A stretch of DNA of 64,000 nt from an uncultured Acidobacteriota bacterium (GCA_963725325.1 CAVRYF010000006.1:95993-159992), one strand, 5' to 3'. Shown: positions 2,756 to 57,243, counted from the first letter of the stretch. Numbers and translations: made by a program. The notes: generated by a model not told the origin, from the letters alone.

Positions 2756-3139
2756 TCACCGCCTCGCGGGCGGGCCGAGCGGATTCTTCGCGAAGCACAG
2801 GTCCTCGACGATCCGCCCGCCGATCAGGTGCTGCTGGATGATCCGCTCGGCGTTGTCAGGCGTGACGTCGCGATACCACGCGCCTTCGGGATAGACGAGC
2901 GCGATCGGACCGTCGCCGCAGATCCGCAGGCAGCCCACCTTCGTCCGGTAGCATGGCCCGCTCGAGCCCGCGATGTTCAGCTCCTTCATCCGCTTCTTCA
3001 CGTAGTCCCACGTCTTCTCGCCATCGTCTTTGTCGACGCAGTCGGGGCCGAGGCAGACGAAGAGGTGACGGGTGAGCTGGCCGACGCCGAATGACTCAGC
3101 GGTTTCCGCCGGCGACGACTTGCGGTCTTTCTTGCCCAT
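2756..3139 (-). CDS. thioredoxin-like [2Fe-2S] ferredoxin domain protein
   Basis: 127-aa ORF with four spaced Cys ([10 protein letters not shown]...[25 protein letters not shown]), typical of this ferredoxin family. Confidence 0.7.
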
Positions 3140-3163
3140 CTGTGGCGATCATACCCGAGAGCC

Positions 3164-3240
3164 GCGAACGGCGAACGCCGAACGCCGAACTCCGAACGCC
3201 CAACGCCGAACGCCGAATCGCGAGTCGCGAGCAGCGAGCC
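3164..3240. repeat. tandem heptamer array (CGAACGC-like, about 10-11 units)
   Basis: cgaacgg cgaacgc cgaacgc cgaactc cgaacgc ccaacgc cgaacgc cgaatcg cgagtcg cgagcag. It lies between the ligD stop and the ferredoxin start. Confidence 0.85.
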
Positions 3241-3244
3241 CCGA

Positions 3245-5644
3245 TCACACTCCGTACTTCCCGAACACCGTCTCGAGACGCGCGGGCTTCGAGGTGCGCA
3301 GCCGAGCCCACAAGTCGCCGACCTCGCTAAAACGCGCCGGCGCGGTGACGATGGTGAAGTCGCGCGGGTCGACGCCGGCGTCGACTTCGTCCCAGGTGAG
3401 CGGCGTGGAGACGCCGGCGAAGTCGCTCGCGCGCGCACTGTAGGCACAGGCCAGCGTCTTCCCCAGGATGTTCTGCAGGAAGTCGACGTAGACAGTGCCG
3501 CGCCTGCGCTTCTTGACCATGCGCTCGACGGTCGCCACTTTCGGATGCCGGGCGGCGATCACCGTCGCGACGATCTGACAGAAGAGCTGTCCGGACTCGT
3601 ACGACGTGCCGGGCGGAAGCGGAATGTAGATGTGCAGTCCGCGCGATCCTGACGTCTTCGGCACGGCGGGCACGCGCATCGACTCGAGCTCGTCGCGCAC
3701 CCAGCGTGCGACGTCGAGCACGTGCGCGAGCGTCGCGCCTTCGCCGGGATCGAGATCGAGCGCGACGAAGTCGGCGTCGAGCGGCGATTGCACCCGCGAG
3801 AACCACGGGTCCTGCGAGATCGCGGCGAGCTGCGTCATATAGAGCAGCGTAATGAGCGACCCGCCGATGAAGCGCTCGGCGCCGCGCTCTTCGATCGGGT
3901 CGAGATCGTCGGGCAGGGCTTCCATTCGCACGCCCGCCGGCGGCTGTTCCTTCTGCCGGCGCTGCTGATAGAACGCCACGTGGTCGTCGACGCCGTTCGG
4001 AAAGCGCTTCATCACGAGCGGTCGATCGGCGACAACCGGAAGGATGAGTGGCGCAATCGTGGCGTAGTAGCGCAGCAGGTCGCCCTTGGTGAGCTTGAGC
4101 TTTGGCCAGAACGGCTTCGCGAGATTGGTGACGCCGATCCTCGCTCCGTCGGGGAGCGCGAGAGTCCCGTCCCGGCGCGTGTCCTCGAGCGCGCGCAGCT
4201 GGTCGATGACGGGCTGCATCTGGGCGAGGGCTTCCCTTACATCGACCTTTTTGTGCTGTTGAGCCGAACGGTTGGTCGAGACGCGCGCGGCGTCTTCGGA
4301 CTTCGCGCGGCGCGGTGCCTTGGCGTCAGCGGTTCTGTCCGCATTTATCAATGCCCCTGGGGCCCCACCCCCAGGGGCTTCTCGCGCGGCGACTTCCGCC
4401 TTCGCTGATGCTTCGGCGGACCGCCGTAGCCTTGGCGGAGGCTGGTCGCGCCGCGCTCGGGCCGCAGGCGCTTGCCCCTCTCTGACGACACTCGTTGGCT
4501 TCTTGTCATCTCTCAACCCCAGGTACACCGGATGGCGCAGCTTTCCGTCGTCAGTCCACTCCGTGAAGCGGACCTGGGCGACGAGCTCGGGGCGCACCCA
4601 GTGCGCGGTTTCGTTGCTCTCGATCTTGTCGGCAAACGGCGACTGTTTCGTCTCACGCGCCTTGAGGAGCTTCGAGACCCGCTCGAGCTCGTGCTGATCG
4701 AACCCCGTGCCCGCGTGCCCGACGTAGATGAGAGAACCCGGCTGGCTTGGGGCGTTCGGTCCGCTTTTATCAGCGCTCGCGGGGCCCCACCCCCGCTCGC
4801 TCTCGCGCGGCGACTTCCGCCTTCGCTGAAGCTTCGGCGGACCGCCGTAGCCTTGGCGGAGGCTGGTCGCGCCGCGCTCGGGCCGCAGGCGCTCATATAC
4901 CCCCAGCAGCAGCGCCCCGAAGTACTGCCGCGTGTTGCGCGGCTCGGTCCAGCCGCCGATGACGAATTCCTGCTCGTGATGGAGCTTGAGCTTGCGCCAC
5001 GAGGGGCTGCGGCGGCCCGACTGGTAGGGCGACCGCGCCTCTTTGACGATCAGCCCTTCCCACCCTTCTTTCTTCGCGCGCTCGTGCAGCGCGCGGCCAT
5101 CGTTGGTCACTTGTTCGCTGATGCGAATCGTGCTCGACTTCGACTTGCCGAACAGACGCTCGAGGTGCGCGCGGCGCTCGACGAGCGGCAGGCCGCGGAG
5201 ATCCTCTTTGCCTTCGCGCAGGATGTCGAACGCGATGAACGCGACCGGGTGTTCGCGATCGATGCGCTCGACATCTTTCGCGTCGCTCAAGTGAATCCTG
5301 CCCTGCAGCCGCTGGAATCCCACGGGATTCCCCTTCGCGTCGAGCGCAACGATCTCACCGTCGATTATGAGGGGCTCGGTAGCACCGAACGAGGCGAGGG
5401 CGGACACGATGGAGGGGAACTGCGAGGTCTTGTCGTTGCCCAGGCGCGACCAGACACGCACGAGCGCGCGCGGACGCGCCGGAGCAGTCTCACCAAGCCC
5501 GCGCTTGCGCGCGGGCTCGACTTCAATCAGCGCACGGATGCCGTCGTACTTCGGTTCGAAGACGAGAGACGTGCCGGTGAGCGGCGGATCGGCGAGCGTC
5601 GCGAGCATCGGTCGCGCGGCGCCGGATTTTTCTCGCCAGATCAC
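3245..5644 (-). CDS. ligD: ATP-dependent DNA ligase LigD, ligase + polymerase/primase domains, no phosphoesterase domain seen
   Basis: Adenylation motif EPKYDGIR, OB-fold end KLRHPVYLGLRDDK, and C-terminal LigD-Pol motifs (KTSGSRGLHIYIPL, YVDFLQN). The GTG at 5644 is the longest start and the ATG at 5608 (MLATLADPP) is an alternative. The gene is divergent from ku. Confidence 0.9.
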   Translation of the reverse strand: MIWREKSGAARPMLATLADPPLTGTSLVFEPKYDGIRALIEVEPARKRGLGETAPARPRALVRVWSRLGNDKTSQFPSIVSALASFGATEPLIIDGEIVALDAKGNPVGFQRLQGRIHLSDAKDVERIDREHPVAFIAFDILREGKEDLRGLPLVERRAHLERLFGKSKSSTIRISEQVTNDGRALHERAKKEGWEGLIVKEARSPYQSGRRSPSWRKLKLHHEQEFVIGGWTEPRNTRQYFGALLLGVYERLRPERGATSLRQGYGGPPKLQRRRKSPRESERGWGPASADKSGPNAPSQPGSLIYVGHAGTGFDQHELERVSKLLKARETKQSPFADKIESNETAHWVRPELVAQVRFTEWTDDGKLRHPVYLGLRDDKKPTSVVREGQAPAARARRDQPPPRLRRSAEASAKAEVAAREAPGGGAPGALINADRTADAKAPRRAKSEDAARVSTNRSAQQHKKVDVREALAQMQPVIDQLRALEDTRRDGTLALPDGARIGVTNLAKPFWPKLKLTKGDLLRYYATIAPLILPVVADRPLVMKRFPNGVDDHVAFYQQRRQKEQPPAGVRMEALPDDLDPIEERGAERFIGGSLITLLYMTQLAAISQDPWFSRVQSPLDADFVALDLDPGEGATLAHVLDVARWVRDELESMRVPAVPKTSGSRGLHIYIPLPPGTSYESGQLFCQIVATVIAARHPKVATVERMVKKRRRGTVYVDFLQNILGKTLACAYSARASDFAGVSTPLTWDEVDAGVDPRDFTIVTAPARFSEVGDLWARLRTSKPARLETVFGKYGV
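4331..4472. repeat. ~142-bp palindromic element, copy 1 (inside ligD, Lig-Pol linker)
   Basis: The 3' 92 nt (4381-4472) match 4802-4893 with a single mismatch. It contains a perfect hairpin, gcccctgggg-ccccac-ccccaggggc (4353-4378). Confidence 0.9.
4752..4893. repeat. ~142-bp palindromic element, copy 2 (inside ligD, OB-fold loop)
   Basis: Same element as 4331-4472, 421 nt away. Its 5' hairpin has a different stem sequence but the same ccccac loop. Confidence 0.9.
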
Positions 5645-5679
5645 AAAGGAGAAAAGAGAGGAAGGGACGGTCGATTACC

Positions 5680-5759
5680 GAGTATTCGGAGACTGACGAC
5701 CCGGGTCGGGGCGGGAGGAGGATGCCCCAAGTCCGGATCCGCTCAATCTCCGAATACTC
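5680..5759. repeat. 13-bp perfect inverted repeat (GAGTATTCGGAGA / TCTCCGAATACTC) enclosing palindrome GACCCGGGTC
   Basis: Arms at 5680-5692 and 5747-5759, in the ligD-ku divergent intergenic region. Confidence 0.75.
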
Positions 5760-6117
5760 TGTAACCGACTGCCAACATCTTCAACCAATTGGCGACATTA
5801 ATCAACAATCTTCCACGTCCGGGCCCCGCGAGCTCGACCTCGAGCGCCCAGTCATCCAATCTGCTTGGTTTTCAAAGAGATACCGGCGTCAGGCGGCAGG
5901 AAGGGTAACGGGCGCCGCCCCGCACGGCCGGGTCCGGCGCAGCCGCCCCGCGGCCGGAGGTGCAAAAATGTGCACTCGGTACCGAAACTGGTCCGAGAAG
6001 CCGATAATCAGAGCTGCCTTCGAAGGATCCGCGGTATGACGATCGGCATACCGGCATAGACCGCGCGACGGGGTCAGGCCCCGATCACAACCCCGATCAA
6101 GCAAGGAGCAGACGAAG

Positions 6118-6966
6118 ATGGCGGCTCGCCCCACGTGGAAAGGGTTCATGAAGATCAGCCTGGTGACGATCCCGGTGCGGGTCTTCCCGGCGACGGACGC
6201 GGCGGCGACCATCAGCTTCAACCAGCTGCACGCCGAGTGTCAGACGCGAATCCAGCAGAAGCGCTGGTGTCCGCACTGCGAGCGCGAGGTGCCCATCTCG
6301 GAGATCGTCAAGGGCTACGAATTCGAAAAGGGACGCTACGTCGTCATGTCCGAAGACGACATGTCGAAGGTGCGCCCCGAATCGACGCGCGTGATCGACC
6401 TCGTGCAGTTCACCGACGCGGCGGCCATCGATCCGATCTACGTCGAAAAGCCGTATTACCTGGCGCCGGATGGACCGATGGCACGCGAGGCGTTCGCGGT
6501 CATGCGTGAAGGCATGAAGGGAAAGGCCGGCATCGGCAAGCTGGCGCTCTACGGCCGCGAGTATCTCGTGGCCGTCCAGCCGCGCGACAAGGGCCTCGTG
6601 ATGTACACCATGCGCCACGCGAAGGAAGTCCGCAGCATGGACAACATCGAGGAGCTCGACTCGGTGCCCGAGAAGGTGAAGGCCGAGGAAATCAAGCTCG
6701 CCAAACAGGTGATCGGGAATTTCGAGGGCGCGCTGAATCTGGCGGAGTACAGCGACAAGTATCAGGAAGAGCTGCAGCGGATCATCGACGCCAAGGTCGC
6801 CGGCGAGGAGGTCGTGGCGACCGAGGAGGAGACGCCGCCCAAGGTCGTCAACCTCATGGACGCGCTGCGTCAGAGCCTCGACCGGGTCAGCACGGGGAAG
6901 AAAAAGGCCGCCAAAGCAGTCATAGAGAAGCCGGCCCGGGTCGCGGCGAAGCGCCGCGCGCGGTAA
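6118..6966 (+). CDS. ku: Ku protein (NHEJ DNA end-binding)
   Basis: 282 aa. The N-terminus RPTWKGFMKISLVTIPVRVFPAT and the motif YEFEKGRYV are typical of bacterial Ku. AAGGAG lies 8 nt upstream. It is paired with ligD. Confidence 0.93.
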   Translation: MAARPTWKGFMKISLVTIPVRVFPATDAAATISFNQLHAECQTRIQQKRWCPHCEREVPISEIVKGYEFEKGRYVVMSEDDMSKVRPESTRVIDLVQFTDAAAIDPIYVEKPYYLAPDGPMAREAFAVMREGMKGKAGIGKLALYGREYLVAVQPRDKGLVMYTMRHAKEVRSMDNIEELDSVPEKVKAEEIKLAKQVIGNFEGALNLAEYSDKYQEELQRIIDAKVAGEEVVATEEETPPKVVNLMDALRQSLDRVSTGKKKAAKAVIEKPARVAAKRRAR

Positions 6967-10500: not shown

Positions 10501-12895
10501 GTACGCCCACCTCGTCGAGGCGATTGTTGATGGGCGATCGATCGACGTCGTCCCGTCGCTTGACGATGATCGGACGCTCTCTCAGCTACGGGTGCTGCTC
10601 GAGATTGCCCGCGTCCACCGCGAGGCTTTGACCGTCGACGGCGTTGCGGGAGCATCGGTCGGCGCTGCACCGCCGGTGTCACTCGGTCACTCCACGTCGC
10701 GTTGGGCACACCTGCACCTGCTCGAGTCAATCGGACACGGTTCATCCGGCATGGTCTATCGGGCGTGGGACAGCCGGCTCGCAAGGGAGGTGGCGCTCAA
10801 GCTGATGCCGGCGGGAGGGACGTCGACCTCGTCCACGCTCGTCGAAGCCAGACGCCTGGCTCGCATACATCACCCGCACGTGGTCTCGGTGTACGGCGCC
10901 GATCAGATCGACGGCCGGGTCGGCGTCTGGATGGAACTGCTGAGGGGCCGTACGCTGCACGACGTGGTTCGGGCACAAGGGCCGCTGAGCGCGCGAGAGG
11001 CGGCGCTCCTCGGTGCCGACGTGTGCTCCGCGCTCGCCGCGGTGCACGGCGCGGGATTACTCCACCGCGACATCAAAGCCCAGAACGTCGTCCGCGAGCA
11101 CGGGGGCCGCATCGTCCTGATGGACCTCGGTGCAGGCCGTGAGATGGCCGACGATCCCTCGCTCGACCTGGCGGGGACGCCACTCTACATGGCGCCGGAG
11201 CTGTTTGTCGGAGGGCCCGCGACCGTCAGGAGTGACATCTACAGCCTGGGCGTGCTGCTTTTCTTTCTGACGACCGGATCCGTGCCGGTGGTTGCTTCCA
11301 CCTTGACCGAGATCCGCCGCGCGCACGAGCAGGGCCCTCGGAAGTCGTTGCGGGACCTGCGGCCAGACCTTTCGCGTGCGTTTGTCGAGACGGTCGATCG
11401 GGCGATCGGACCTGATCCAGCAGACCGGTTTGCGAGCGCGGGCGAGATGGAGCGAGCACTGTCAGCCAGCATGGGGGCTCGCCCCGTCGTCGTTCCCGCC
11501 TCGCCCAACAGGTCCCCGCTCGGTCGCGTTCTTGGCAGGAGCATTCCTGCATGGGCGGCGATTGCGCTGGCGCTGCTGGGGGGCTTGCTGGTTCTGGTTG
11601 CCGAGAACGTCAATCCGTTCTCTCGACGTGTGTCACCCGGTGTGGCGGTACCTGCGGGCGGCGGGACAGACGCGGGCGTCCGTCCCCTCAGTGCCGACCA
11701 GGCAAAGATTGCCCGCGGCTTCGAGGAACTCGGCTCGACGCTCGCGAGTCGCGGCGAGTGGGACCAATCGGTGCCGCAGTATGCCGAGGCTGAGCGGATC
11801 TACCGCCTCAACACCAACCCGGACGCTCCGCTGGTTGGCACCGCGCTGGCCAGGCTCGGGTGGGCGCAGCAGCACGCGGGGCAGCTCGAGGCGGCGCGTG
11901 GCAACTACGAGCTCGCGCTCGCCAAGTTCGAGAACTTCGACGTCGCCGCATGGACCGAGACGACCCTGGTTGCTCTCGCATCGCTCCACCAGCGCGCCGG
12001 TCGTCAACAGGACGCCGCGGAGGCCCTCGGTCGCGCGCTGCGAGTTCGAGCGCGGGTCCTGCTGGGATCGCACGATGATGTTGGCGGCCTCGCCCGAGTT
12101 GGCGTGGCCGTCGATCGACTGGAGAGCTCGCTGGCGTCAGTGCCGCTCGATCAAGACGGCGACGGCGACTGGCTGCCGGATGCGCTCGAGGTTGCCCTGG
12201 GCTTGAATCCACGATCGTCCGATGGGGACGGAGATGGCGTACCCGATGGGGACGAGGACGTGGACGGCGACGGTGTGTCGAACTGGCTCGAGTTCGGGGT
12301 GACCGTCGATCCGACGAAGATGATTGCGCACTTCGGCGGAGTCGATCCCGAATGGCTCGGGTTTCAGCAACCGGACAACCGGCGGTTCGTCGGGCGTTCC
12401 CTGACGTCGGCAGCGGCTCCAGCCTGGAAGATACCGAGCACCGGGCAAAGCATCTACTTCCATCCCCTCACTGGCGCCCAGCGCGCGGCGGCCATGACCC
12501 GTGGATGGCGATTCGTGACGCGAGGAGAACTGCACGAGGGCGTCGGACGGGTTGCGCTCGATTTGAGTCCTGATGGACCGCTCTTCGACCTGGGTTTCTA
12601 TCAGGAGGGGGCGACCGGCACCGACGTCCGCGTGATTACGAGCGTCGTGCCGTTGACGGGTCCGCTCGAATCCGCGTCTCGCGTTGGTCCGTGGCCACTG
12701 CTGGGCCTCGACTACGAGCCGTCGACGAAAGGCGCGGCGCTCGTGGTGAATGGTGCACGGCGGCCCATCGAGCCCTACGCTGGCCACAATCAGTTTCAAG
12801 ACGACATGGGGTTCTTCTTTGCTGCGAGCATCGGGCCGGGCAAGTCGGCGCGAAGTGATGTGGATTTCAACATCGTCAGGCTCGTGATTCGGTGA
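10481..12895 (+). CDS. membrane Ser/Thr protein kinase with TPR-like, TSP3-like Asp-rich repeats and a C-terminal beta-rich ectodomain
   Basis: Kinase motifs are GHGSSGMVYRA, VALKLM, HRDIKAQN, DLGAG and YMAPE, followed by one TM segment (WAAIALALLGGLLVLV) and DQDGDGDWLPD...DGDGDGVPDGDEDVDGDGVSNWLE. The ATG at 10481 overlaps the sigma gene by 20 nt. Confidence 0.85.
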   Translation: MTHRPPEYAHLVEAIVDGRSIDVVPSLDDDRTLSQLRVLLEIARVHREALTVDGVAGASVGAAPPVSLGHSTSRWAHLHLLESIGHGSSGMVYRAWDSRLAREVALKLMPAGGTSTSSTLVEARRLARIHHPHVVSVYGADQIDGRVGVWMELLRGRTLHDVVRAQGPLSAREAALLGADVCSALAAVHGAGLLHRDIKAQNVVREHGGRIVLMDLGAGREMADDPSLDLAGTPLYMAPELFVGGPATVRSDIYSLGVLLFFLTTGSVPVVASTLTEIRRAHEQGPRKSLRDLRPDLSRAFVETVDRAIGPDPADRFASAGEMERALSASMGARPVVVPASPNRSPLGRVLGRSIPAWAAIALALLGGLLVLVAENVNPFSRRVSPGVAVPAGGGTDAGVRPLSADQAKIARGFEELGSTLASRGEWDQSVPQYAEAERIYRLNTNPDAPLVGTALARLGWAQQHAGQLEAARGNYELALAKFENFDVAAWTETTLVALASLHQRAGRQQDAAEALGRALRVRARVLLGSHDDVGGLARVGVAVDRLESSLASVPLDQDGDGDWLPDALEVALGLNPRSSDGDGDGVPDGDEDVDGDGVSNWLEFGVTVDPTKMIAHFGGVDPEWLGFQQPDNRRFVGRSLTSAAAPAWKIPSTGQSIYFHPLTGAQRAAAMTRGWRFVTRGELHEGVGRVALDLSPDGPLFDLGFYQEGATGTDVRVITSVVPLTGPLESASRVGPWPLLGLDYEPSTKGAALVVNGARRPIEPYAGHNQFQDDMGFFFAASIGPGKSARSDVDFNIVRLVIR

Positions 12896-26967: not shown

Positions 26968-27078
26968 GGTGTCAGGCAGTGAATCGTGAATCCCGCTGCG
27001 TTCAGACATTTCTACGGCTGGATTCACGATTCACTGCCTGACACCGGCGGCTGGATTCACGATTCACTGCCTGACACC
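26968..27078. repeat. three-arm inverted/direct repeat (one left arm, two identical right arms)
   Basis: ggtgtcaggcagtgaatcgtgaatcc (26968-26993) is complementary to ggattcacgattcactgcctgacacc. That sequence occurs within two identical 30-mers at 27016-27045 and 27049-27078. Each arm contains GTGAATC twice. Confidence 0.9.
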
Positions 27079-27181
27079 GATGAACTGGCCCGATAGGGCG
27101 GGCACGGGAGGAGCGGGTCAGGGGACAGATATGATAGGCAGGCCGTGCAGAGCCCGGTACACACCGGGCTGGAAGGGCGTA

Positions 27182-28998: not shown

Positions 28999-29215
28999 AC
29001 AACGGGACGCGGATTACGCGCATCACTACGGGACGCGGATTACGCGGATCGCCAAGGGACGGGGATTGCGCGGATTCAACACTGGACGCCGAGTGCGAGG
29101 ATCAGTTGGGTCTTCTGAGAACGGAGAGCGTTCTTGGTCAAACTTGAAGATGCGCGCGATCCGCGTAATCCGCGTCCCGTTGAATTGAGTGATCCGCGTT
29201 CCCGCTGATCGGGCC
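28999..29215. repeat. ~215-nt word-repeat hairpin (GGACGCGGATTACGCG-type words)
   Basis: The left arm is three degenerate copies of gggacgcggattacgcg (29003-29080). The right arm is cgcgcgatccgcgtaatccgcgtccc...gatccgcgttccc (29152-29212). The apex holds an inner hairpin, agaacg-gagag-cgttct. Confidence 0.85.
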
Positions 29216-44743: not shown

Positions 44744-44824
44744 CACGATGACCACGATGGTACGATGACCACGATGGATTTTCTTTGTTGACATCGTGGT
44801 CATCGTCTCATCGTGTCCATCGTG
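44744..44824. repeat. ACGATG-word hairpin upstream of padR / mfs (divergent region)
   Basis: cacgatgac cacgatggt acgatgac cacgatgg - attttctttgttga - catcgtggtcatcgt ctcatcgt gtccatcgtg. The palindrome cgtgatcacg follows it. Confidence 0.85.
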
Positions 44825-57136: not shown

Positions 57137-57243
57137 GTTCAGGGTTCAAGGTTCAAGGTTCAGGGTTCAAGGTTCAAGACCTTCGAGTGTGTACTTGAAG
57201 CTCTTGCTTGAACCCTGAACCCTGAACCCTGAACCTTGAACCC
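57137..57243. repeat. ~107-nt heptamer-word hairpin between convergent genes (possible bidirectional terminator)
   Basis: gttcagg gttcaag gttcaag gttcagg gttcaag gttcaag - apex hairpin cttcgagt-gtgt-acttgaag - cttgaac cctgaac cctgaac cctgaac cttgaac. No U-tract is present. Confidence 0.85.

Follow-up and report, generated by a model that had tools for sequence, protein, structure and literature searches.

Two nested palindromic repeats in an acidobacterial ligD gene, probably carried as translated passengers

Why should the gene for a DNA repair ligase carry the same palindromic DNA twice within its coding sequence, and translate it in a different reading frame each time? The question is raised by a ligD gene in a stretch of 64,000 nucleotides (nt) from an uncultured Acidobacteriota bacterium (GCA_963725325.1, CAVRYF010000006.1:95993-159992), here called the window. 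Our answer, to which we assign a probability of roughly 0.7, is that both segments represent a palindromic repeat, nested and dispersed, of the kind exemplified by repetitive extragenic palindromic (REP) sequences and Rickettsia palindromic elements (RPEs), and that they are translated passengers in disordered, insertion-tolerant loops of a functional LigD. We judge this REP/RPE-like element to be selfish or neutral.

A sequence-only reading of the locus had described one palindromic element of about 142 bp, inserted at 4331-4472 and 4752-4893 within a single uninterrupted LigD open reading frame (ORF). The ORF (minus strand, 3245-5644) does enclose both copies, and the proposed limits were close, requiring refinement only to 4332-4472 and 4754-4893. 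However, what was taken for one element is instead a 51-nt core nested in an older base element of about 91 nt, and the two layers have separate histories.

Two layers at two sites in ligD

The two copies align over about 141 nt. Corresponding positions are separated by 422 nt and then by 421 nt, a shift that results from a 1-nt indel in the 5′ part, and neither spacing is divisible by three. The 5′ parts are approximately 77% identical; the 3′ 92 nt (4381-4472 versus 4802-4893) contain, as first described, a single difference, T4409 versus A4830. Equally as described, these shared nucleotides are translated in two frames, yielding QPPPRLRRSA in copy 1 and SLRQGYGGPP in copy 2. Comparison of one copy with the other by blastn gives E = 1e-51, and probes of 70 and 32 nt match exactly at these two copies only (0 matches expected from 100 shuffles). 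No third copy was found in the 64-kb window by blastn. Each copy folds into a 10-bp hairpin with the loop CCCCAC (hairpin A) and a long imperfect hairpin, in agreement with the palindromic character originally noted, and the fold z-scores of the copies on the plus strand are -5.1 and -3.6. The lower stem of hairpin A in copy 1 carries compensatory changes relative to copy 2 and to copies from metagenomes. A search of positions 3000-6500 with Rfam 15 at permissive thresholds returned only chance microRNA models, at 21-24 bits compared with gathering thresholds of 70-104.

The orthologue alignment agrees with the initial placement of copy 1 in the linker and copy 2 inside the OB fold. Copy 2 is situated between LLLGVYE and LIYVGHAGTGFD, a junction spanned by 3-8 residues in more distant orthologues. 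Pfam assigns the ATP-dependent ligase domain (PF01068) to residues 12-220 and LigD_Prim-Pol (PF21686) to residues 519-779. The ligase C-terminal/OB domain (PF04679) is matched at profile positions 15-94 only (residues 302-381); the first strands of this fold sit upstream of copy 2, and the match starts at residue 302. A phosphoesterase domain is absent from the ORF.

LigD has 6399 homologues at E <= 1e-30, and the nearest ligD sequences are derived from soil metagenomes. Among 120 aligned orthologues (61-88% identity), the base element occupies the linker in 25 and the OB site in four, at identities down to about 63%. The core was found in only one of them, P0001 (88% identity), at the linker site; the linker core is thus shared by the window and its closest relative, and the OB-site core is present in the window only. 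All four orthologues with a base element at the OB site read …RLRPERGA-KSPRESERGWGPASAEKSGPN… and lack the 17 core-encoded residues TSLRQGYGGPPKLQRRR. Base copies in the linker mostly read …ARARRxVAAREAPGGGAPGALINAD…, with another or a mixed frame in P0002, P0003 and P0050, and the frame at one and the same site differs between orthologues (P0002/P0003 versus P0005/P0007). In more distant orthologues the linker consists of short, unrelated sequences.

The same history is visible in DNA from related loci (L-numbers denote the 239 loci that were fetched, of which L120-L239 are metagenome copies of the base element). In L117 and L119 the OB site is empty, reading GAGCGCGGCGC|GAAGTCGCC (GAGCGCGGCGC|GAAGTCGCCGCGC) with the loop GCGC|GAAG. 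At the bar the window is longer by exactly 51 nt, which fall in the loop of the GCGCGGCG/CGCCGCGC stem and whose placement is ambiguous by 2 nt. The linker site is empty in L119 and filled in L118 and the window. Based upon these filled and empty states and on parsimony, the base element would have entered the linker long ago and the OB loop later, both insertions being inherited vertically from an ancestor of the lineage. The core would then have reached the linker recently, in the ancestor that the window shares with its closest relative, and the OB site in the window lineage only. The proposal that both segments are lineage-specific insertions is sound insofar as distant orthologues lack them, but only the core is a recent arrival; the base insertions are not. 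Homologous peptides at both positions in distant orthologues had been named in advance as refuting evidence; shared peptides were found for the base element, within the lineage only, and more distant orthologues are without both inserts.

Both sites are hypervariable in this lineage. For example, canonical REPs occupy the linker of L117, in the very loop that carries the base element in the window: GTAG-headed hairpins, GTAGCTTCCGGC-YTTA-GCCGGAAG, are repeated there in tandem (11153-11212, with two exact matches), read VASGLSRKSPPP and form three near-repeats in the protein. The OB loop of L118, the closest LigD orthologue, contains (1324-1351) a run of GGCTCAG heptamers in its translated reading. 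The LigD linker and OB loops are, on this showing, general landing sites.

An AlphaFold2 model based on a 69-sequence alignment predicts the ligase and OB domains with confidence and the polymerase domain more patchily. No secondary structure, and predicted local distance difference test scores below 50, are assigned to residues 392-467 (copy 1) and 256-299 (copy 2), and copy 2 is placed in a loop between strands 245-250 and 305-311 that has confident flanks. The ratio of nonsynonymous to synonymous substitution rates (dN/dS) relative to three orthologues ranges from 0.11 to 0.14 across the domains and from 0.43 to 0.95 across the insert regions, whose alignment is partly uncertain; in two of the three comparisons (L118 and L119), dS in the inserts is below that of the domains. 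The LigD domains are under purifying selection and the protein is evidently functional, and the insert peptides, which are predicted to be disordered, seem to evolve nearly neutrally. The dN/dS and dS values suggest that constraint acts on the nucleotide sequence and its hairpins rather than on the peptide, which would have no function of its own. Judging from these selection data, the only copies to survive within genes would be those whose length is divisible by three, that are free of stop codons and that fall in a surface loop.

Dispersal of the core and the base element

The 51-nt core has the consensus CCGCCTTCGC-(variable mini-hairpin)-CGGCGGACCGCCGTAGCCTTGGCGGAGGC(T)GGT. A core 21-mer from the apex of the long hairpin occurs in at least 116 DNA stretches among contigs representing one genome per species, and the hairpin-A signature of the base element occurs in at least 120 soil metagenome contigs, which together contain 127 copies in unrelated settings. 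This establishes the dispersed, nucleotide-level entity that the sequence-only reading had postulated. Among the matches listed, almost all carriers of the core are metagenome-assembled genomes (MAGs) of Vicinamibacteria, Vicinamibacterales, Luteitalea or Acidobacteria gp6, and for this reason the window organism appears to be a member of the Vicinamibacteria. A hidden Markov model (HMM) built from the matches identifies 129 non-overlapping copies in 884 kb of loci together with the window. The core has no match in plasmid and phage collections (blastn, distant mode) or in viral contigs (21-mer), and hence there is no sign of carriage by phages or plasmids. Three cores are located on MAG contigs labelled Acidimicrobiia (BTVE01, VFZH01) or Bifidobacteriaceae (CAZJBN01) (loci L006, L092 and L037), which suggests that either Acidobacteriota contigs were mis-binned or the element has spread horizontally.

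The core is typically found in the loop of another hairpin. Perfect complementary stems of at least 6 bp flank 61 of 114 cores, versus 4% when partners are shuffled. These stems, 7-9 bp long, comprise 38 distinct sequences, and 42 of the 61 are headed by GTAG or GTGG. Moreover, 20 of 36 stems are also found as hairpins without a core, mostly with TTTA or TTCA loops on the GTAG strand. Filled sites have the form stem-TT-[CCGCC…GGT]-(T/C)A-stem′, and in ligD the loop CTTC becomes CTT-[core]-C; from this pattern we conclude that the core always follows C-T-T in a hairpin loop, with an orientation that is fixed relative to GTAG. Junctions are ambiguous by 1-2 nt (GA or TT), with no clear target-site duplication. 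A single genome can carry the same core in several unrelated stems (JBOGIV01; L009, L051, L065 and L079), a Luteitalea MAG has compensated stem variants such as GGCGGGGC and GGCGCGGC, and in four loci (L001, L035, L011 and L067) one core is nested within another at the TT between inner hairpins. The core mini-hairpin also varies by compensated pairs (GC-TGAA-GC, GCG-GAA-CGC, GCGC-GAA-GCGC, GCA-AA-TGC). Doublets occur near some intergenic cores, for example in L020, L026 and L033; the ligD composites are not doublets.

The base element, which is abundant in soil Acidobacteriota, is made up of the left terminus GTCTGCATTTaTCAaTG, hairpin A, hairpin 1 and the tail TCGGGCCGCAGGCGCT, and its terminal symmetry is limited to a weak 6-bp match (G[TC]CTGC...GCAGGC). 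The top of hairpin A is invariant (GGGG-CCCCAC-CCCC), and compensation is evident in its lower stem (C-G versus T-A; a TC/TC mismatch versus GC/GC; CCCC/GGGG in copy 1). None of the 127 metagenome copies has the canonical core and one has a diverged core. Their hairpin 1 loop is short (…GGCGACTTCGCGCC…) or is filled by other small hairpin modules, at least two in kind, the commonest of which adds 21 nt, consisting of the mini-hairpin GCGCCGC-TNCG-GCGGCGC with varying stems followed by TTCCCTCCGG. A second loop module of about 45 nt, CCCTTCGAG...CTCAGGGCG...CTGAGC...CGAAGGG, is also found in L012, L062, L126 and L141. The composite of base and core is not confined to ligD: L113, from a different MAG and an unrelated context, is 95.7% identical to copy 2, and further composites are present in L002, L012, L036, L047, L056 and L106. 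Base elements also form head-to-tail arrays with a period of 96-97 nt (L127, 1522-1715; L204, 2632-2824; L208, 658-755), and the L204 array extends into the 5′ end of an ORF for an FtsE-like ABC ATPase. The end of the element reads TGATAAATG, which resembles a stop-stop-start arrangement. When the element is in minus orientation, a start codon often follows its end within a few nucleotides (L142 near position 208, L120, L135, L138, L153, L163 and L213); in L142, ...CTGAAAG is followed by ATG AAG CTG ATT GTT GGT, resembling the N-terminus of peptidyl-tRNA hydrolase. With crude gene calls, 21 gene starts versus 18 gene ends face this side of the element, counts that do not confirm a significant bias.

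Approximately 92-95% of copies, among the matches listed, lie outside genes. A copy was called in-gene when the frame was open across the element and the GC content of third codon positions (GC3) was far above that of second positions (GC2) on both sides, and hosts were identified by Pfam. For the core these hosts are a sulfatase, an M14 peptidase, a DUF1223 protein, a TPR protein, an SMC hinge, a Ser/Thr kinase domain and a PD-(D/E)XK (AddB-like) nuclease; with L037, which has no Pfam match, and the N-terminus of an amino-acid permease, where the core is possibly upstream of the true start, the total is about 8% of copies. The base element is in frame in 5 of 102 usable copies, among which each of the three minus frames is represented; the hosts include an ABC-F ATPase domain, a HerA_C helicase, an FG-GAP/ASPIC protein and a membrane protein. 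Peptides derived from the core (QPPPRLRRSAEASAKAE, LRQGYGGPPKL, PASAKATAVRRSFSEGG and ASADRRSLGEG) represent three minus frames and one plus frame, and other peptides predicted from inserts are QPPPRLRRSAEASAK and ESERGWGPAS. The occurrence of copies in unrelated proteins and in several frames supports the view that the peptide is not what is conserved. The multi-frame openness that had seemed special is, however, to be expected at 65% GC. Stop codons occur in one of the six core frames, leaving five open, and we rejected openness as a designed property because a 17-codon frame is stop-free by chance about 65% of the time at this composition.

Most in-gene cores have a second, related outer layer, CCGCCTTCGC...GC[core]TGGTCGGCG...GCCTCGCCGGAGC (L004, L010, L022, L050, L072, L075, L089 and L102). 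This layer resembles a diverged core around a core, a hint that what comes to reside in genes is one particular doubled form.

Mechanism and rival explanations

We infer that movement is of the RAYT/IS200 type, an idea that the GTAG heads of the host hairpins and the C-T-T junction fit. The core, and probably the base element too, would be non-autonomous and would be moved as single-stranded DNA (ssDNA) hairpins by an HUH/Y1 transposase, which would cut at a C-T step where a hairpin loop exposes it. For the second ligD core, gene conversion from the first is a credible alternative, with approximately 40 nt of identical base flank on each side.

Several observations weigh against a dispersed, REP/RPE-type passenger element. 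A motif scan and tblastn with E. coli RayT found no RAYT/IS200-like transposase in the window and the 239 loci, whose 1.45 Mb are so small a part of the genomes concerned that the negative is uninformative. GTAG is absent beside hairpin A and hairpin 1 of the ligD copies, which are not canonical REPs. The copy counts for core and base are sums across MAGs and metagenomes rather than numbers per single genome. Support for translation of the inserts is indirect, coming from the intact ORF, from purifying selection on the domains around them and from their persistence among orthologues. Polarity is partly settled: within ligD, parsimony is what favours gain of the core over its precise loss, and for cores in REP loops neither is established. 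Furthermore, the ligD cores are near-identical and lie in identical 40-nt flanks, which makes independent insertion indistinguishable from conversion. Strand preferences in folding are contradictory, the plus strand being better for 93 of 105 cores folded with their flanks and the minus strand for 78 of 104 base elements. Finally, there is an orientation bias: in all six independent in-gene base insertions the minus strand of the element is the sense strand, and gene ends facing the element's right side are 3′ in 37 cases versus 5′ in 11, a moderate bias. The counts for neighbouring genes are suggestive only, since they depend on a crude GC3-based gene caller that under-calls genes (66% coding).

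Such orientation bias fits a role at the RNA level equally well. The elements might be cis-acting RNA modules for stabilization, pausing, regulation or antisense control that modulate ligD expression, an explanation that we consider unlikely. It would account for the compensatory changes in the hairpin A stem and the core mini-hairpin, for insert dS below that of the surrounding domains, for the single orientation of in-gene base copies and for the many base copies that abut start codons, and REPs are widely thought to be transcribed (PMC3733652). However, hairpin conservation is equally expected if a transposase recognizes ssDNA, and the arrays and nesting are typical of selfish spread. The contexts are diverse with no common neighbouring gene, the preferred folding strand is inconsistent, and Rfam yields no family match at E <= 1. 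A selected role for the peptides, for example as basic disordered DNA-binding linkers that aid NHEJ (nonhomologous end joining), is very improbable, despite their richness in Arg, Lys and Ala, their presence in a DNA enzyme and the recurrence of repair and chromosome hosts (LigD, SMC, HerA and the AddB-like nuclease), which echoes an earlier survey (PMC3733652). The frame in which this DNA is read differs between the two sites and among orthologues (again P0002/P0003 versus P0005/P0007), most orthologues lack the inserts altogether, and the relaxed dN/dS and the predicted disorder of these segments also argue against the idea.

Other alternatives concern the origin of the copies. Simple internal duplication, an assembly artefact or a pseudogene were rejected on the basis of the dispersed copies, of orthologues in independent assemblies and of domains under strong purifying selection. 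It is somewhat unlikely that the second copy arose within ligD by duplication or gene conversion or, more narrowly, that the OB core was converted from the linker copy. The 92-nt stretch with one mismatch covers the core together with flanking sequence of about 41 nt. Neither copy in L119 has a core, and a 42-nt flank is already identical between the sites there, so the homology for conversion exists, and the OB core of the window has the TGAAGC loop seen in the linker core of L118. Yet duplication of the whole element is excluded by the divergence of the 5′ halves, the timing of colonization differed between the sites (25 versus 4 of 120 orthologues), members of the family are scattered far beyond ligD, and conversion leaves the presence of the core in loops of 38 unrelated stems unexplained. 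Alternatively, the core could be the ancestral long loop of a REP superfamily of Vicinamibacteria, with empty hairpins produced by precise slippage deletions. Palindromes are indeed prone to deletion, some REP families are known to have either short or long self-complementary loops (PMC3733652), and the 1-2-nt repeats (TT, GA) at the junctions could aid slippage. We nevertheless regard this as distinctly improbable: the core is limited to the two closest sequences at the linker and to the window at the OB site, and because deeper carriers of the base element lack it, loss would need many independent precise deletions. The unrelated stems around one core in JBOGIV01 and the nesting of core in core also argue for gain.

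A further reading goes beyond a passenger repeat and treats the core as a free-standing mobile hairpin, which would integrate after C-T-T, with specificity for site and strand, in single-stranded hairpin loops and whose hosts would include REPs of many stem types, the base element and the core itself, with repair and chromosome genes over-represented among the hosts. We put this forward tentatively, as rather less likely to be true than false by a wide measure, and hold with similar reserve its corollary that the core is conserved, almost unchanged in many species of Vicinamibacteria, as the recognition module of an HUH-type enzyme. If correct, the core would be among the smallest mobile DNA units known, and the over-representation of LigD, SMC, HerA and AddB-like hosts could be explained by their transcribed or single-stranded state when the enzyme is active.

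The ligD locus and comparison with known systems

The ligD gene and its features are listed in Table 1. Synteny with two soil assemblies from Denmark, at about 85% identity (blastn), extends over the neighbourhood, which includes Ku and a HAMP-SpoIIE protein, and Pfam Ku also adjoins ligD in L117 and L119. The intergenic region between the divergent ligD and ku genes contains, immediately before the ligD start (5670-5769), an inverted repeat with 27-nt arms (GTCGATTACCGAGTATTCGGAGACTGA / TCAATCTCCGAATACTCTGTAACCGAC) that are 89% complementary and separated by 46 nt. This may be an operator or a regulatory hairpin; Rfam gave only chance-level microRNA matches to it.

Table 1. Positions in the window of the ligD and Ku genes and of the nested elements within ligD.
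Feature	Position	Strand	Remarks
LigD ORF	3245..5644	-	799 aa, uninterrupted; hosts both copies; ligase + OB + primase-polymerase
Composite copy 1 (base + core)	4332..4472	+	Ligase-polymerase linker; minus-strand reading ...RARRDQPPPRLRRSAEASAKAEVAAREAPGGGAPGALINADR...
Hairpin A, copy 1	4353..4378	+	GCCCCTGGGG-CCCCAC-CCCCAGGGGC; fold
Hairpin 1, copy 1	4384..4456	+	Stem GCGCGGCG / CGCCGCGC; loop CTTC contains core
Core hairpin, copy 1	4396..4446	+	51 nt, CCGCCTTCGC-TGATGCTT-CGGCGGACCGCCGTAGCCTTGGCGGAGGCTGGT; boundary ambiguous by 1-2 nt; core HMM E = 2e-17
Composite copy 2 (base + core)	4754..4893	+	Splits OB fold; reading ...RLRPERGATSLRQGYGGPPKLQRRRKSPRESERGWGPASADKSGPN...
Hairpin A, copy 2	4775..4800	+	GCTCGCGGGG-CCCCAC-CCCCGCTCGC; internal TC/TC mismatch, the commonest family variant
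Hairpin 1, copy 2	4805..4877	+	Core in loop
Core hairpin, copy 2	4817..4867	+	51 nt; sole difference A4830 vs T4409; core HMM E = 4e-18
Ku gene	6118..6966	+	Divergent from ligD; from ORF list; NHEJ locus

The window contains other small repeats. At 26968-27090, just upstream of an ORF that starts near 26990, a REPIN-like arrangement has a unit of about 26 nt, GGTGTCAGGCAGTGAATCGTGAATCC, once and then twice as the reverse complement. Inverted heptamer arrays are found at 57137-57240 (GTTCAGG/GTTCAAG facing CTTGAAC/CCTGAAC) and at 44745-44810 (CACGATG/ACCACGATG facing CATCGTGGTCATCGT), and runs of the CATCGTG type flank cores in L013, L023, L053, L071 and L116. A small intergenic repeat at 29002-29180 has the motif GGGACGCGGATTACGCG twice in direct orientation and once inverted, about 130 nt downstream. 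A scan of the 64-kb window for GTAG-headed hairpins gave five weak candidates, with no REP family evident. An apparently gene-free stretch at 9.6-22 kb was dismissed as a threshold effect of the gene caller, large plus-strand ORFs being present there.

Vicinamibacteria are a dominant and little-studied soil lineage, and the two abundant repeat families found here are undescribed. Such repeats will mislead gene calling, domain annotation and MAG assembly in this class. The unusually clear empty, base-only and base-plus-core states of orthologous ligD sites trace a stepwise route from selfish hairpin DNA to protein sequence and reveal the tolerance of the OB-fold loop and the linker, the loop-in-loop junctions are a testable lead on how REP-like DNA moves, and the earlier puzzle of why repair genes host such elements is extended. 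A literature search for palindromic repeats in Vicinamibacteria returned nothing relevant.

Among known systems, RPE-1 and its relatives are dispersed palindromic repeats of approximately 100-150 bp that are inserted in frame in surface segments of proteins, the peptide being a by-product of a nucleotide-level element (also summarized in PMC3733652). The likeness to the present case, in which no sequence homology is expected, is that of a dispersed palindrome of about 100-150 bp lying in frame within genes. However, the host here is a high-GC, free-living soil bacterium, the in-gene share of about 5-8% is much lower, and the architecture is nested. The mycobacterial interspersed repetitive units (MIRUs) of high-GC bacteria are oriented units of 40-100 bp between operon genes, which form tandem arrays and small ORFs that overlap stop and start codons. 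By description they are similar to the base element, with its tandem arrays (96-97 nt) and an end, TGATAAATG, that abuts start codons, but MIRUs are not markedly palindromic and nesting is not known for them. Miniature inverted-repeat transposable elements were rejected as a model, as real terminal inverted repeats and target-site duplications are absent.

Other mobile DNA also targets the loop or centre of a palindrome. The insertion sequences IS1397 and ISKpn1 insert in the loops of REPs or of bacterial interspersed mosaic elements (BIMEs), and BIMEs and enterobacterial repetitive intergenic consensus (ERIC) elements are modular mosaics with internal insertion sites. IS1397 and ISKpn1 differ in that each is a full insertion sequence with a DDE transposase, as opposed to a 51-nt non-coding hairpin. 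To our knowledge, integration of a hairpin into the loop of another hairpin is undescribed for RAYTs. The REPIN/RAYT and IS200/IS605 systems nevertheless share with our elements a hairpin-defined strand specificity, GTAG heads, cleavage or a junction at C-T, and compensated stem variants; they differ in that no REP doublet is evident in the ligD copies and no RAYT/Y1 gene in the 1.45 Mb. The TnpA_REP protein of E. coli cuts ssDNA at CT, guided by GTAG (PMC3479197).

The closest comparison is with the GTAG and CGTC REPs catalogued by Di Nocera, De Gregorio & Rocco 2013 (PMC3733652). That survey includes intragenic REPs in polymerases, in a DNA ligase of Opitutus terrae and as a double insertion in uvrA; it equates some of them with RPEs and suggests that they are neutral in linkers and loops (PMC3733652). 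The comparison with RPEs made by the sequence-only reading is apt, but neither a repair-enzyme host nor a double insertion is new, as both were already on record (PMC3733652). As here, intragenic REPs are short dispersed hairpins that are mostly intergenic, with a minority in frame and often in replication or repair hosts, and they include families with long self-complementary loops. Most intergenic hosts of the core are GTAG-headed hairpins. The ligD copies differ in having no GTAG, although a GTAG or GTGG head is present in 42 of the 61 intergenic hairpins that host the core, and in forming a two-layer composite of about 141 nt rather than a REP of 20-40 nt. Moreover, one conserved 51-nt loop module is shared here by dozens of unrelated stems and many species, and the architecture is nested and modular. 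The case is therefore an example of a known habit of palindromic repeats, their residence in tolerant protein loops, and what is new are the families themselves and their occurrence in a phylum and class absent from that survey.

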